Part shown: positions 2,484 through 57,470 of the stretch, one piece after another | Position numbering within the stretch: position 1 is the first letter of the stretch | Layout of the letters: the number at the start of each line of letters is the position of its first letter | Notes under the pieces: generated by a model | Database searches by the model: none | Seen by the model: the letters and a program-made list of their open reading frames with translations, nothing else | What the model was told of the DNA's origin: nothing | From: a virus | Taxonomy: Duplodnaviria > Caudoviricetes | Strand: one strand, 5' to 3' | DNA: 57,569 nucleotides | Virus record (IMG/VR): IMGVR_UViG_3300029787_000051 | Span: 1-57,569 of that record | Position numbers and translations under genes: made by a program

Positions 2484-2721
2484 GATTACGCCTACACATA
2501 CATACGATTGGTATATTAAGTGGGCGGCAACACTAGTGTTGATGGTTGGTATGATCACAACATCACAAAATATATACCCGCTTAACTTGTTCGTAAACCT
2601 TATAGGTTTAGTTGGGTGGTTAGTTGTAGGTATAGCATGGCATGACCGTGCTTTAATTGCAATCAATGCCGTTGGCATTTCAATCTATTCTGAAGGGATA
2701 CTTGCATGGATGATGAAGTAG
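2467..2721 (+). CDS. Small multi-pass membrane protein (DUF6552-like)
   Basis: Hydrophobic helices; KW...NIYP.N...GW...W.DRALI pattern. Confidence 0.7.
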   Translation: MQTFNKITPTHTYDWYIKWAATLVLMVGMITTSQNIYPLNLFVNLIGLVGWLVVGIAWHDRALIAINAVGISIYSEGILAWMMK

Positions 2722-3107
2722 ATGACCTGCTGGATATACCAGCATTTCTTAAACGTGACCCAACTGAGAAGCTCACCGTTCAGCCCATCGAAGATGAGCC
2801 AAAAGAAAAAGGAGAAGAGTCTTGGAAAATTTTGCTGCGACAACATCAAGAAAAGAAACAAGCTCTTGTTGACAGGCGCAATGAACTAGCGCAGCAGCGT
2901 AAAGAAAAAGCGCAAAGAAAGCGTGATAAAGCAGAGGCTTACGAGCGTTTCTTAAGGTGGGTGGATCGTCAAGGAGTAGCCTTTTCTTTTATAGGTATAA
3001 AAAAGAACTTGACTATGGATGAGAAAGCTATAAGATCGTGCTTACGAAAAGCACTTAAGCAAGGTCACGTAGTTAAACATAATCGCAGACTGTACAAGAA
3101 AGGATGA
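2706..3107 (+). CDS. Protein with N-terminal FtsZ-tail-like peptide, coiled coil and possible C-terminal winged HTH
   Basis: LLDIPAFLKR; charged helical middle; basic helix-helix-hairpin C-terminus. Confidence 0.7.
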   Translation: MDDEVDDLLDIPAFLKRDPTEKLTVQPIEDEPKEKGEESWKILLRQHQEKKQALVDRRNELAQQRKEKAQRKRDKAEAYERFLRWVDRQGVAFSFIGIKKNLTMDEKAIRSCLRKALKQGHVVKHNRRLYKKG

Positions 3108-3194
3108 AAATAATGATATCTGTAGCCCTCACTGCACTTGGCTTTTTATTGCTTCATGCTGCTGTAAATAATCTTTATTAGAAGGAGAACTGAT

Positions 3195-4064
3195 ATGCCT
3201 TTAGATCAAACAAGTGAGTTGCAATTCCTCCCTGAGTTGCCTGATGTTCTGAACTTTGAGCCTGTTGTTGAGCAACAGATGCGCAATGGCAGCAAGGTTG
3301 AGGGACATTTCTGGACTGTCAACCCTCTAACCGATAGGGTTATTGGTACTAGTAAGACACGGCACAAGCCACGCAATTTCGTAGAAATGTGGAATAGCCT
3401 AGACGCTGGACTCGCCGCATCTGATTTGGATGTTAGCGATTGTGATGTTCACATCCATGATGGACCTGATGGTGCAACCATGAGAGCATCAGTTGTCCTC
3501 AAGAGATACGACTTTGAAAGAGTAGTTGGCGAACCCACTAAGCTCTTGGTTAAGGTAGCCGATAGCCACAACCAAACGGTACAACGTGTGGTTAAGGCAT
3601 TACTCTATCGCTTATGGTGTGAGAACGGGCAGAGTTCTATACATGAGAACATTGGTTTCTCACAGAAACATACGATTAACCAAGACCCGATTAAGTTGGG
3701 CGAGGTAGCATCCTCATGGCCTGAGAAGCTGATGAAAGAAGCTGCGCTTCACGCTAAGATGCGTACCTTAAAGGTATCCGATGAAACTACACTAGATTTC
3801 TTTACCAAGAATATAGCCACTAGCCGTGGTGTTACTGGTGTAACTGTCAACAAGCAAGCTCTGAAAGAGACTATGGAAATATGGAAAGGGTACAGGTCAC
3901 TTGGACCTACCGTGTTCCGTATCTACAATACACTCACACACATTAGCTCTCACGTTGAGGCGAAGACAAAAGGTACAAACTTGCACCGCAAGATTGCACG
4001 GGAAGAACAACGCATCGAAGAAGTATTGCGAGGTAATGACTTCCAGAAATTGTTAGCAGCATGA
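3195..4064 (+). CDS. DUF932-family phage/plasmid protein
   Basis: DSHN...RLWCENG...KHT and YNTLTHISSH motifs; AAGGAG SD. Confidence 0.8.
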   Translation: MPLDQTSELQFLPELPDVLNFEPVVEQQMRNGSKVEGHFWTVNPLTDRVIGTSKTRHKPRNFVEMWNSLDAGLAASDLDVSDCDVHIHDGPDGATMRASVVLKRYDFERVVGEPTKLLVKVADSHNQTVQRVVKALLYRLWCENGQSSIHENIGFSQKHTINQDPIKLGEVASSWPEKLMKEAALHAKMRTLKVSDETTLDFFTKNIATSRGVTGVTVNKQALKETMEIWKGYRSLGPTVFRIYNTLTHISSHVEAKTKGTNLHRKIAREEQRIEEVLRGNDFQKLLAA

Positions 4065-4957
4065 GGGCAGTTGCTGAACTTGTAGATGATTATCTTTTAT
4101 CCAGCAACTTCAACGCTTTACGTGACAGAACCAAGCAAGATTATCGCAGGTTTATTAGGCAAGCAATCTGCACAGAGGTAGAGGGCGTACTGCTACGGCA
4201 GCGTCCTCTTACCATGAGTGGCTGCAATGCCAAACGTCACTACGAAATGTGGCTAGATAGAGGTGTGCCTACAGCGAACCATATCTCATCTGTTATCAGG
4301 CTCATCTTCAACTATGGTATTGAGATGGGGTACTGCGATAGCAATCCATTCAAAGCCTTCAAGCGACAGGCTACACATACACGTACTGTAATGTGGGAAC
4401 CCGAAGATGTACGTAAGTTCCTTGATGCAGCGTACTCAAAGTTTCACTGGCGTAATGTAGGTATCATTGCCCATACTGCGTACGATTTGTGTCAACGTGT
4501 GGGTGACATGCGTATGCTTGAGTGGAGTTGGTTTGACTTTGATAAACACGTACTGCACTTACAGCAATCAAAGCGTAGGGCAGAGGTACACCTGCCTATC
4601 AACGATGAACTGTGGGACATGTTGCTACAGCAAGAGGTGGACTATGGCTTCCAGAAATACGTAGCACCGAAACCTAAGTCAGATGGTTGGGGGTTCAAGC
4701 CATACTCTGATCAGTATCTGTCAAGGGTAGCGCGTAAGATTATGCAGGAAGCAGAGCTACCAGATACACTACGTATATCCGACTTGCGTAGGACAGGTAC
4801 AGTTGAGATGGTCGAGGCTGGTGTTCCAATGGGACAGATCATGTCTGTTACAGGACACGCTAACCCACAAAGTGTTAAGCCTTACATGAAGGCTACGTAT
4901 ACGGCAGCTAATGCTGCGTTAACAACTAGAAGGTCCAACGTTGGACCAAAGGAGTAG
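4061..4957 (+). CDS. int: Tyrosine recombinase/integrase
   Basis: Catalytic pattern QRVGD (R), QSKR (K), SDLRRTG (R), TGH, KPY (Y). Confidence 0.9.
   Translation: MRAVAELVDDYLLSSNFNALRDRTKQDYRRFIRQAICTEVEGVLLRQRPLTMSGCNAKRHYEMWLDRGVPTANHISSVIRLIFNYGIEMGYCDSNPFKAFKRQATHTRTVMWEPEDVRKFLDAAYSKFHWRNVGIIAHTAYDLCQRVGDMRMLEWSWFDFDKHVLHLQQSKRRAEVHLPINDELWDMLLQQEVDYGFQKYVAPKPKSDGWGFKPYSDQYLSRVARKIMQEAELPDTLRISDLRRTGTVEMVEAGVPMGQIMSVTGHANPQSVKPYMKATYTAANAALTTRRSNVGPKE
4932..4947. promoter_or_regulatory. Perfect palindrome GGTCCAACGTTGGACC at the int 3' end, abutting the primase SD
   Basis: One of six copies of the motif. Confidence 0.75.
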
Positions 4958-4958
4958 C

Positions 4959-5735
4959 ATGGATATCAAACAATTTGTTACTGATCTTGATCTCGCACAT
5001 GAAGAAACCAAACGCATGAACTGCCCTGTATGTGGGGGCATTAAAACTTTCACCGCAACTAACAGCATGGGTTCCTTACTCTGGAACTGCTACAAAGCTA
5101 CATGTCATGTAGGTGGGCAGACACGTATCCGTATGTCAGCAGAAGATTTGCAGAAGGTGCATAGTCGCACCAAGAGTACGGAAAGTATTACCGAACTAGA
5201 GCCACCCCCTTACTGGACTATACCTACAACAGAAGATGTACCATCTTTCTATAGGCATTGTGACGCATACAACTTTGACCCCGAAAAGATTGGGCTAACG
5301 TATGATGTCAAAGAGAATCGCATTGTGTATCCCATATACCACAAAGGCATACTCGTTGACGCATGTGGCAAGTCGCTAAGTAAACGGCTACCTAAATGGA
5401 AACGATATGGTAAGTCACAGATACCTTACACATATGGTAGAGATATCACAGGAACTGTGGTTGTGGTAGAAGATTGCATCAGTGCTACTGTTGTGGGTGA
5501 CATAGGCTTGACAGGTCTAGCGTTGCTAGGTACAAACCTACTTGATGTACACCGCACAGTCATATCAAAATACAGCAAGGCAATCATTGCGTTGGATCGT
5601 GATGCGTTACCTAAACTAATGAGCATGGCAAAAGAGCTACGTCCTATCGTAGATAGTGTGCAGGTCATGCGCCTTAACGATGATGTTAAGTACCAGCATC
5701 CAGATGACATGAACTATTTAAGAGGAGAAGTATAG
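4959..5735 (+). CDS. DNA primase (Zn ribbon plus TOPRIM)
   Basis: CPVC...WNCYKATC; VVVEDCISA, ALDRDA; AAGGAG SD before ATG 4959. Confidence 0.9.
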   Translation: MDIKQFVTDLDLAHEETKRMNCPVCGGIKTFTATNSMGSLLWNCYKATCHVGGQTRIRMSAEDLQKVHSRTKSTESITELEPPPYWTIPTTEDVPSFYRHCDAYNFDPEKIGLTYDVKENRIVYPIYHKGILVDACGKSLSKRLPKWKRYGKSQIPYTYGRDITGTVVVVEDCISATVVGDIGLTGLALLGTNLLDVHRTVISKYSKAIIALDRDALPKLMSMAKELRPIVDSVQVMRLNDDVKYQHPDDMNYLRGEV

Positions 5736-6958
5736 TGGAACTATCCCTAATCAGAAGCCTCATGGACAAGCCTTTCTATGAGAATCATAGAGGAGCGCAA
5801 TGCCCAGATAAGCTGTTCTCCAAAGACGTAGGTAAGATCAAGCGTGTCATTGATGTTGCAATGTCTAGGTACAACAGAGATATTACACCCAACGAAGTTG
5901 AAGCATTGTTCTTTAGCAGCAACCCATCCCTAACTACAGCGCAGAAAGAAGACTATACATCTATCTTCAAGCGGGTACGTGCAGAGAAACCTATGGGTGA
6001 AGACGTTGCAGAGGAAGTGTTATCAAAACTATTCCAACAAGTTGTTGGCGAGGAGATTGCTAACATAGGCTTCGACTACGTGAACGGTTCACAGTCTACG
6101 CTTGAACCTTTGCGCAACTTGCTTGAGCAATACAGTGATGACTTCCTACCCAATGTCAATATCGAATGGGATGATATCACAGTTGACAACCTCTTAGCAC
6201 AGAATGATCTTGAAGCTAGGTGGACTTTCAATATACCTACACTTGCCAGCCGTGTTGCTGGTGTAAATGACGGGCATCTAATTGAGGTAGGCGCACGGCC
6301 CAACACTGGCAAGACATCCTTTCATGCATCTCTTGTTGCTGGACCTAATGGCTTTGCATGGCAAGGTGCTAAGTGTATGGTGCTATGCAACGAGGAAGCC
6401 TTCCATCGCGTAGGTGCTAGGTATCTTACGGCTGCATCAGGTATAACCTTGCAAGAGGTTGTGAAGAACAAAGATGCTGCCATTGAATTGTATGATCAAA
6501 TACGTGACAATATTCTAATGAAGGATATAACTGGGCGCGACATGTCTTGGGTTGAGACTGTAGTTAAGTCATATGAACCCGACATTGTTATCCTTGACAT
6601 GGGTGACAAGTTCGCAAACTTCTCCGCATATGCACGTACAGATGAAGCGTTGAAAGCTAACGCAATCTATGCTAGGATCATCGCCAAAGAGTATGGTTGT
6701 GCTATATTCTACATGTCTCAACTAAGTGCAGAGGCAGAGGGTAAGATCACATTGAACCAAGCAATGATGGAAGGATCACGTACTGGTAAGGCAGCGGAAG
6801 CTGACCTGATGGTACTGATAGCAAAGAACCCCTCTATTGAGGGGCAAGATGAAGAGGATCGCCAACGTCACCTTAACGTAGTTAAGAATAAGTTGACGGG
6901 TTGGCATGGTATTGTGCATTGCAATCTTGAATATGAAATAGCGAGGTACGTAGTATGA
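5735..6958 (+). CDS. Replicative DnaB-like (SF4) helicase
   Basis: GARPNTGKT Walker A, VILD Walker B, MSQLS, ADLM, KNK. Confidence 0.93.
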   Translation: MELSLIRSLMDKPFYENHRGAQCPDKLFSKDVGKIKRVIDVAMSRYNRDITPNEVEALFFSSNPSLTTAQKEDYTSIFKRVRAEKPMGEDVAEEVLSKLFQQVVGEEIANIGFDYVNGSQSTLEPLRNLLEQYSDDFLPNVNIEWDDITVDNLLAQNDLEARWTFNIPTLASRVAGVNDGHLIEVGARPNTGKTSFHASLVAGPNGFAWQGAKCMVLCNEEAFHRVGARYLTAASGITLQEVVKNKDAAIELYDQIRDNILMKDITGRDMSWVETVVKSYEPDIVILDMGDKFANFSAYARTDEALKANAIYARIIAKEYGCAIFYMSQLSAEAEGKITLNQAMMEGSRTGKAAEADLMVLIAKNPSIEGQDEEDRQRHLNVVKNKLTGWHGIVHCNLEYEIARYVV

Positions 6959-54302: not shown

Positions 54303-54316
54303 GTCCAATGTTGGAC
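54303..54316. promoter_or_regulatory. Palindrome variant GTCCAATGTTGGAC
   Basis: 1 mismatch to consensus; flanked by two C-GAA-G mini-hairpins in opposite orientation. Confidence 0.7.
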
Positions 54317-54741: not shown

Positions 54742-54821
54742 TGGTTGTGAGTAACACCTTGAGTTCTTACGAAAGGTGTTCCTCACTAACCAACACCATT
54801 CAAACTGGTCCAACATTGGAC
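54742..54821 (+). promoter_or_regulatory. Long bulged hairpin with GAGTTCTTACGA cap plus palindrome variant GTCCAACATTGGAC (54808-54821)
   Basis: ggtt-gtgag-t-aacacctt / aaggtgtt-c-ctcac-T-aacc. Confidence 0.78.
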
Positions 54822-55863: not shown

Positions 55864-55911
55864 GTTCTTACGAAGCTATCACGTTACACGTAAACTGGTC
55901 CAACGTTGGAC
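55847..55911 (+). promoter_or_regulatory. Long bulged hairpin with GAGTTCTTACGA cap plus palindrome (55898-55911)
   Basis: gtgtaa-gtgatagct / agctatcac-G-ttacac, then gtaaactg and the palindrome. Confidence 0.8.
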
Positions 55912-56523: not shown

Positions 56524-56537
56524 GTCCAACGTTGGAC
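56524..56537. promoter_or_regulatory. Palindrome GTCCAACGTTGGAC
   Basis: Directly after a TAG stop, upstream of the next SD. Confidence 0.75.
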
Positions 56538-56840: not shown

Positions 56841-57470
56841 ATGCCTAAATCCCCAGTACATATCAGCAAGATGACAGGCAAGCTGGATAGCTTGCGGTCT
56901 ATCAGTACCAACACCGTGACCAACAAGTTTTGCAATGACATGCACAACGCAAAGGCTGAGACTATATGCAAAGTGTGCTACTCTCACGCTATGCTCAATG
57001 GCTTTCGTAAGAATTGCCAAGCATCATTGCAACGCAATAGCGATTTGCTTTCCAAGCAAGTGCTATCGGTTGATGAGTTACCCGTTATCAAAGATAAGGT
57101 GTTCCGTTTCAATGCTCACGGTGAGCTACTCAACATGCGGCACCTACTTAATCTCATTGCCATCGTGCGGCACAATCCTGACACGCTGTTCACGTTGTGG
57201 ACTAAGCGCAAGGATTTGATTAACCGCCTGTTCAAGTATGAGCTATCGGAGAAACCCGATAACATGATACTGATCTTCTCTAACCCGAAGGTTAGTAACA
57301 TCATCCCCGAACATAAAATGCCAAAGCATTTTGACAAGACGTTCAACAACGTGCTTGAGCATGAGGCTGTGCCGTATCAGAACTGCACGGGACAACAATG
57401 CAAGGATTGCCTGTTGTGCTACACTCACGGGACCACTCCAACTATCGTTGAAAAGGTAAAGGCATATTGA
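56841..57470 (+). CDS. Gp88-like Cys-rich (Fe-S/Zn) phage protein
   Basis: C...ICKVCYS, FRFNAHGEL, LWTKR, C....C..C..CY. Confidence 0.7.
   Translation: MPKSPVHISKMTGKLDSLRSISTNTVTNKFCNDMHNAKAETICKVCYSHAMLNGFRKNCQASLQRNSDLLSKQVLSVDELPVIKDKVFRFNAHGELLNMRHLLNLIAIVRHNPDTLFTLWTKRKDLINRLFKYELSEKPDNMILIFSNPKVSNIIPEHKMPKHFDKTFNNVLEHEAVPYQNCTGQQCKDCLLCYTHGTTPTIVEKVKAY

Follow-up and report, generated by a model that had tools for sequence, protein, structure and literature searches.

A marine podophage early protein begins with a peptide resembling the FtsZ tail, and the same peptide recurs on unrelated viral and mobile-element proteins

The window analyzed here is the entire IMG/VR virus record IMGVR_UViG_3300029787_000051 (57,569 bp, with a completeness rating of 100%). 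The gene under study, referred to as the target gene, lies at 2706–3107 on the + strand of the window, encodes 133 amino acids, and ends with a stop codon at 3105–3107. It appears in the list of open reading frames (ORFs) and has relatives in protein searches, and its product, whose N-terminus reads MDDEVDDLLDIPAFLKRD, is a genuine early protein, accessory in kind, of an HMO-2011-type marine podophage that is probably temperate. Residues D7–R17 (DLLDIPAFLKR; 2724–2756, + strand) resemble FtsZ's C-terminal tail, and this tail-like peptide is the best-conserved segment of the target protein. Judged by its sequence, the peptide would be a portable mimic of the FtsZ tail that engages tail receptors such as FtsA, a reading that we hold to be reasonably probable.

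An earlier note on this DNA, made from the sequence alone, had proposed an N-terminal likeness to the FtsZ C-terminal peptide, and this is borne out by the invariant core of the peptide, the annotated start, and the match to host-type tails. The E. coli tail is printed as DYLDIPAFLRKQAD383 in a passage of PMC4117426, and the window peptide DDLLDIPAFLKRD agrees with it at eight positions out of the 11 aligned (D, L, D, I, P, A, F, and L), with the two basic residues swapped. Ten of 11 positions match alphaproteobacterial FtsZ tails, for example DDLLDIPAFLRRQAN of Nisaea denitrificans (L087). The peptide fits the FtsZ-tail consensus L-[DE]-I-P-x-F-L-[RK]-[RK] with preceding acidic residues. Residues I11 and L15 of the target protein are the equivalents of E. 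coli I374 and L378, which a passage of the same paper gives as critical for binding ZipA, FtsA, and MinC (PMC4117426). The target protein does not belong to the FtsZ family, having no Pfam GTPase match and a length of only 133 amino acids.

The earlier note had also allowed for a true start downstream of the motif. ATG 2706 is the sole ATG, GTG, or TTG in frame upstream of residue 104, where the next in-frame start codon falls, and such a downstream start is therefore discarded. A likely ribosome-binding site, GAAGGGA (2692–2698, + strand), was read from the sequence 8 nt before ATG 2706. The motif is kept as protein sequence in homologues, and this shows it to be translated. Elsewhere in the window, a LIPEFLRR string at ~54488 (+ strand) was set aside as chance, with no listed ORF of at least 35 amino acids at that place.

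A phmmer search of 1.84 billion representative proteins returned nine relatives of the target at E ≤ 1e-3, and a profile search returned 12 at E ≤ 0.01. Neither Pfam nor PHROG gave the target any significant family match. The family alignment (A2) contains 16 sequences; one member is 98% identical to the query, and, near-identical copies aside, the remaining 14 share 23%–39% identity with it. Invariant columns in this alignment are solely M1, L9, I11, P12, F14, and L15, with R17 present in at least 90% of the sequences, and the last five of the invariant columns form the FtsZ-tail core. Conservation of the motif in homologues, which the earlier note had named as a check on its reading, is thus found in 16 of 16 sequences, including at the two positions equivalent to I374 and L378. 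The C-terminal domain is less conserved than the tail-like peptide. Contigs of other marine podophages also carry homologues, located among early or DNA-metabolism genes. A tblastn search with the target and a homologue against 50,697 phage records gave no match, as did a megablast search with 20 kb of the window against phage records. No fused or longer forms were found at E ≤ 10 in a profile search of proteins of 248–2000 amino acids, which is weak evidence that there are none.

The pattern [DE]LL[DE]IPxFL[KR..]R was written as a degenerate DNA pattern and scanned over bacterial genome contigs and IMG/VR. FtsZ-type C-terminal tails account for 117 of the 120 genome-contig matches listed. Ninety-four of the listed matches are in frame with the FtsZ signature GGGTG[ST]G, with the motif 14–16 residues from the stop, and 23, whose frames are short or truncated where the locus stops, finish with the same three residues (QAN, QAD, or QTN). 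The other three are in other proteins (L103, L125, and L160). All three genome-scan carriers that were tested are TIGR00065 FtsZ above cut-off, and the carriers with a species name include those of Thalassospira tepidiphila, Nisaea denitrificans, Kiloniella laminariae, and two Bradyrhizobium. A sister pattern (the [DE]L[DE]IP variant) gave FtsZ-type tails in 25 of 27 matches. The looser pattern L[DE]IPxFL[KR..]R has matches in 137 of 201 sampled alphaproteobacterial genomes, in 132 of them exactly once, compared with three matches for the backward control; the tally of 137 takes in one genome flagged as unpublished (G045), which was used nowhere else. The pattern in cells is therefore essentially FtsZ's own tail. 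A reading of the peptide as beta-clamp-binding or SSB-tail-like was dropped when the genome scan showed the pattern to be that of the FtsZ tail.

The scan of IMG/VR identified 56 motif stretches, compared with two for the reversed pattern, and this excess, together with the motif being the sole invariant block of the family, places it beyond chance. The viral carriers are 46 distinct proteins, and the FtsZ signature GGGTG[ST]G occurs with none of the 56 stretches. Thirty-six stretches lie within 12 codons of the start and 16 within 20 residues of the stop, so that 52 of 56 are at a protein terminus. Of the four internal ones, one sits midway along a DUF1376 protein, and the other three belong to proteins whose lengths run from 619 to more than 1000 amino acids. 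Fifty-four viral ORFs were parsed with a strict peptide expression, which left out two loci with F for the second L, and these form 11 similarity groups.

The carriers include the winged-helix family of the target, a ~310-amino-acid phrog_11903 family on marine contigs with an N-terminal motif, MT-A70 methyltransferases (motif at the C-terminus), an N6/N4 methylase (motif at the N-terminus), DUF1376 or "primosomal protein" genes, and several small proteins with no assigned function. A further carrier is a 342-amino-acid queuine tRNA-ribosyltransferase-like (DpdA-like) protein of phrog_887, found at three loci (L014, L015, and L035), in which the motif ends two residues before the stop. In the phrog_11903 family, matches to T4-like relatives begin only at about residue 64, and the copy in Caulobacter phage Cr30 starts without the motif, so the motif is an add-on in that family. 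Similar peptides are found on large ParB-like proteins in two alphaproteobacterial genomes (G196 and G011), where FtsZ is accompanied by several such proteins ending in the near-identical peptide plus one residue. These ParB-like carriers (L223, L225, L228, and L235) occur as several near-identical copies per genome, in frames of 763–1005 amino acids, and probably belong to integrative or plasmid elements. A related peptide is at the C-terminal end of two more proteins (L226, 384 amino acids; L229, 985 amino acids), and L160, one of the three non-FtsZ matches of the genome scan, is a similar carrier with a ParB_N match (1.1e-5). Most of the carriers that can be named are DNA-binding or DNA-modifying proteins.

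The viral versions have a composition of their own at two positions. At the x of IPxFL, the 56 viral stretches have E in 25, D in 18, and A in six, whereas A is present in 109 of the 120 genome matches listed. At the first basic position, the viral counts are K 29, R 16, and Q 10, compared with R in 119 of the 120 listed. In the target protein itself, the x is A, as in FtsZ. The distribution over unrelated proteins suggests that the viral peptide behaves as a transferable docking tag and that viruses copy this tag from FtsZ. With this, the tail peptide of the earlier note stands; the interpretation given there is partly supported and needs widening, past a simple division inhibitor, to take in a peptide found on many unrelated phage and mobile-element proteins.

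The structure of the target protein was predicted with AlphaFold2 on A2 (mean predicted local distance difference test score [pLDDT] 80.3; predicted template-modeling score 0.52). Residues 1–34 are of low confidence and acidic, with a net charge of −8, and pLDDT is 52–62 over residues 1–40, the tail-like peptide included. Residues 35–88 (2808–2969, + strand) form a single long, charged helix of 54 residues, with a pLDDT of ~89–93 and a net charge of +7. Residues 89–133 (2970–3104, + strand) form a basic domain with a net charge of +10, which has helices at 95–101 and 106–119 and wing strands at 122–124 and 129–132. The winged-helix topology, a helix-(strand)-helix-helix arrangement with a two-strand wing, is present in this domain, and the possible winged helix-turn-helix of the earlier note is borne out by the model and by Foldseek. 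The top Foldseek match in the PDB is the winged helix of Rpa2 (9f2a_C; E 7.6e-3, template-modeling score on the target 0.81, root-mean-square deviation 1.5 Å, 61 columns), with Zalpha, MarR-type, and MCM winged helices following, and the matches in BFVD are generic winged helices. None of the PDB or BFVD matches reaches E ≤ 0.001, and the top score in ESM Atlas (0.76) is under the useful range. Curated winged helix-turn-helix families likewise gave no significant match, the top one being SelB_WH_2nd_bact (E 0.0036; 17.6 bits vs a cut-off of 27), and PHROG gave a sub-threshold match to a transcriptional regulator, phrog_13786 (E 0.0088). The winged-helix domain probably binds DNA, for which its net charge of +10 is the sole support; its nearest structural match, the winged helix of Rpa2, serves in protein binding.

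A coiled coil, which the earlier note had placed between the two ends of the protein, is not established. Half of the residues in the 35–88 helix are E, K, R, or D, and the best register has 47% hydrophobic a/d positions, a heptad pattern too poor for a coiled coil to be endorsed. In the model, the segment may be a single charged helix, serving as a putative spacer or oligomerization element. Distant members of the family (P0014–P0019) retain both the N-terminal peptide and the domain at the C-terminus and have the middle helix swapped for low-complexity sequence rich in proline and basic residues (noted as linkers in P0015, P0017, and P0019), and the middle region therefore behaves as a spacer. 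The layout of the target protein, with a flexible motif, a 54-residue helix, and a folded domain, mirrors the domain-linker-tail arrangement of FtsZ.

Palindromes of 14 bp had been put forward in the earlier note as a candidate DNA target of the protein. The palindromes are real, and no link between them and the target protein was found. The palindrome GTCCAACGTTGGAC occurs in the window as four exact copies and two with one mismatch (1040–1053, 4933–4946, 54303–54316, 54808–54821, 55898–55911, and 56524–56537), compared with an expectation of 0.09. For at least four of the six sites, the ribosome-binding site and start codon of a + strand early gene come a few to ~15 nt downstream, and two sites share a longer upstream block (TATCACGT...ACGTAAACT). 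As a regulatory candidate, the palindrome probably functions as an operator of early genes or as an RNA element. There was no copy of GTCCAAYRTTGGAC in any of the 189 loci examined, the homologue loci included, and relatives of the target have other palindromes instead of the 14-bp one. HMO-2011 also has no copy, but this phage is itself without the target gene, and the comparison is therefore uninformative. Separately, a 10-bp palindrome, CACTTAAGTG, is present as two copies 52 bp apart just upstream of the winged-helix homologue in L028 (at 2004 and 2056), L031, L041, and L062, and the two may act as paired operators. A viral contig of 59 kb (L004) has a cluster of interleaved palindromes, three copies of ATGTCTAGACAT and two of AGACATATGTCT, at 2809–2932, ~2 kb upstream of the homologue.

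The mechanism that we favor, mimicry of the FtsZ tail, would use three modules: a disordered acidic N-terminus with the tail copy, a charged helix as spacer or oligomerizer, and a basic winged helix. As a short-linear-motif mimic, the peptide would fill the host pocket that normally takes the FtsZ tail. Outside this setting, the FtsZ tail is read by ZipA, MinC, ZapD, SlmA, and ClpX; in Alphaproteobacteria, the foremost receptor would be the membrane anchor FtsA. The protein could compete with FtsZ filaments for their anchors and so delay or block division during infection, it could couple the cargo of the winged helix, phage DNA, to those anchors, or it could do both. We infer both the binding partner and the physiological outcome from the sequence. 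Because most of the nameable carriers bind or modify DNA, and because avidity needs multivalency, real weight is given to the tethering version. In a passage of PMC10769210, free fragments of the E. coli FtsZ tail (354–383) are inhibitory to growth in vivo and are predicted to dock on subdomain 2B of FtsA.

Docking to FtsA, a check put forward in the earlier note, yielded weak support. Complex predictions of FtsA with target residues 1–40 scored 0.32, 0.35, and 0.28 (median 0.32), and the highest of three controls scored 0.00. At least 60% of contacts are shared between the runs, and the pLDDT of the partner is at least 48. In a benchmark, 58 of 80 solved complexes and two of 110 mismatched pairs passed; only seven of the 80, and both of the mismatches, did so at scores of 0.60 or less. 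A pass at the level of 0.32 is wrong in most cases unless the pairing was already likely. FtsA with an FtsZ peptide is also a solved kind of complex, and the score may come from structures that the predictor had already learned. The docking result adds little beyond the sequence likeness.

Several observations weigh against mimicry aimed at FtsA. The weak in silico score is the sole test of binding, and it was obtained with a stand-in FtsA from a marine alphaproteobacterial genome (G003) whose own FtsZ has the same tail type. In a passage of PMC4117426, SlmA binds a monomeric tail peptide with a dissociation constant of 81 µM, compared with 0.21 µM for full-length FtsZ, and a mimic acting as a monomer would compete poorly unless abundant or multivalent. 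The differences between viral peptides and FtsZ tails at the x and the first basic position are systematic, so the preferred receptor may differ from that of FtsZ. Many of the carriers are DNA enzymes (methylases, DpdA-like, primosomal, and ParB-like proteins), which a pure division block leaves unexplained. Finally, five cultured HMO-2011-type phages that were checked gave no real motif match, only a spurious one in CRP-345 that was rejected as an antisense frame of a large gene. The target gene is missing from all five and is therefore dispensable for this phage type, i.e., accessory.

The abundance of DNA-handling carriers could be accommodated by a broader role, in which the FtsZ tail would be a portable address tag on DNA-bound proteins of mobile elements. 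Bound in many copies along the DNA of the element, such proteins would form a multivalent array of tails, and the DNA would imitate an FtsZ filament and be captured by FtsA with high avidity. Factories for replication or modification would then be sited at the membrane or the division site, or the element would segregate by way of the divisome, with any delay of division as a side effect. This would cover elements of Alphaproteobacteria, and probably of other bacteria, and would take in winged-helix and ParB-like proteins, methylases, DpdA-like proteins, and replication organizers. We regard it as rather unlikely. The same carriers, mostly handlers of DNA (MT-A70, N6/N4 methylases, DpdA-like, DUF1376, ParB-like, and winged-helix), would also be expected if the peptide has the same letters as the FtsZ tail and a different partner, such as a hub of the replisome or nucleoid or a protein encoded by the element. 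The likeness to FtsZ would then be convergent and have no bearing on division. The acidic x and the K or Q at the first basic position, which distinguish the phage version from FtsZ, fit such a partner, as does the weak docking score. However, a peptide with 10 of 11 positions identical to a host-type FtsZ tail would bind tail receptors unless prevented, and the pattern is near-exclusive to FtsZ in cells (117 of the 120 matches listed), so that no other cellular family is known to use it for a different hub. Nor did the analysis turn up a candidate for another receptor. On balance, we think a different partner unlikely.

The peptide could also be a degron, read by ClpXP or ClpAP, in which case the carriers would be short-lived under host control or would saturate the protease. 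A passage of PMC4117426 names ClpX as one of the proteins that read the E. coli FtsZ tail, and one ClpXP recognition site is at the FtsZ C-terminus according to PMC3983244. The position of the viral motifs (52 of 56 terminal, as degrons usually are) and the nature of the carriers (regulators, methylases, and replication initiators, i.e., proteins whose timing matters) are in keeping with this. Nevertheless, four of the 56 viral motifs are internal, and the residues that are conserved belong to the hydrophobic I/P/F/L core, which a passage of PMC4117426 ties to ZipA, FtsA, and MinC binding, and not to the basic end alone. Degron mimicry thus appears quite improbable. The plainest account makes the target protein an ordinary small winged-helix regulator of early transcription, with an N-terminal peptide that has no separate function. 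The winged-helix fold, the sub-threshold phrog_13786 match (E 0.0088), the two 10-bp palindromes just upstream of the homologue gene at four loci, and the six 14-bp palindromes ahead of early genes in the window are all compatible with it. It is the peptide, though, and not the winged helix, that is invariant in the family and recurs on unrelated proteins, and a functionless N-terminus is unlikely to be the best-conserved segment of proteins at ~30% identity. We consider this account very improbable.

The assignment of the phage and the surroundings of the gene are as follows. The DNA polymerase of the window shares 62.7% identity with its counterpart in Puniceispirillum phage HMO-2011 and 52%–60% with those of Roseobacter phages CRP-345, CRP-1, CRP-603, CRP-2, and CRP-207, and the window is therefore an HMO-2011-type podophage. 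The known hosts of this type are marine Alphaproteobacteria. The GC content of the window is ~39%–44%. The early arm on the + strand encodes a Hydrolase_2 hydrolase, a DUF6552 protein, the target, a DUF932 protein, an integrase, a primase, a DnaB-like helicase, a 2OG-Fe(II) oxygenase, and the polymerase. HMO-2011 gp07 was considered as a positional equivalent of the target and rejected as unrelated. The tyrosine integrase gene (4061–4957; Phage_integrase 7.5e-15, phrog_1 1.4e-32) indicates that the phage is probably temperate.

Immediately upstream of the target gene are genes for a cell-wall hydrolase (1968–2483, + strand; Pfam Hydrolase_2, 3.6e-24) and a small membrane protein (2467–2721, + strand; Pfam DUF6552, 4.1e-17). 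The hydrolase and DUF6552 genes overlap by 17 nt and the DUF6552 and target genes by 16 nt, overlaps that make co-transcription and translational coupling of the three probable. In another podophage type (L003, at 4655–5884; L012; and L033), a hydrolase 79%–81% identical to that of the window abuts a target homologue that is only 37%–38% identical. The same phages have a copy of a second window gene (56841–57470), 66%–67% identical. The finding of a highly similar hydrolase again adjoining a diverged target homologue, in a different podophage type, suggests that the hydrolase/target module has been swapped between phages. Right after the target stop codon, a 22-codon ORF at 3113–3181 (+ strand), preceded by AAGGA, encodes a hydrophobic peptide (MISVALTALGFLLLHAAVNNLY), which may be a small membrane peptide or chance.

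If the peptide engages tail receptors, it would be a clear bacterial case of short-linear-motif mimicry by viruses, and phages would have a new route to the divisome, imitating the FtsZ tail rather than binding FtsZ. An 11-residue tag is present on at least 46 distinct viral proteins of ~11 unrelated groups and on ParB-like proteins, and it could be a general address label of mobile DNA. The natural variants of the tail, with an acidic x and K or Q in place of R, would then be a tunable set for sorting the preferences of receptors. A search of full-text literature, with subscription journals mostly outside its scope, found no paper on a phage or mobile-element protein with an FtsZ tail.

Compared with the FtsZ tail itself, the target peptide has the same core (D-L-[DE]-I-P-x-F-L-[RK]-[RK]) in a flexible segment on a long spacer tether. 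It differs in being N-terminal, in belonging to a non-FtsZ protein without a GTPase domain, and in lacking the QAN or QAD ending. Among phage and prophage proteins, lambda Kil, Rac KilR, and T7 Gp0.4 are reportedly inhibitors of division. These inhibitors are reported to act on FtsZ itself or via ZipA, whereas the target protein would imitate the FtsZ tail and act on the receptors of the tail. They are alike in being small early phage proteins, and the target would likewise interfere with the Z-ring. The target has no Pfam or PHROG match to the Kil, KilR, or Gp0.4 families; KilR appears in bioRxiv 10.1101/2025.01.07.631774. The proposed tag is also comparable with the mimicry practiced by viruses of eukaryotes, which copy a host docking peptide, a short linear motif, onto the disordered termini of diverse viral proteins. 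The difference is one of setting, which here is bacterial, and of hub, which here would be the set of FtsZ-tail receptors. SlmA offers a further parallel in design, since it too joins a DNA-binding domain to the FtsZ-tail network and, in a passage of PMC4117426, gains affinity through multivalency on DNA. The polarity, however, is reversed: SlmA reads the tail, and the target protein carries it.

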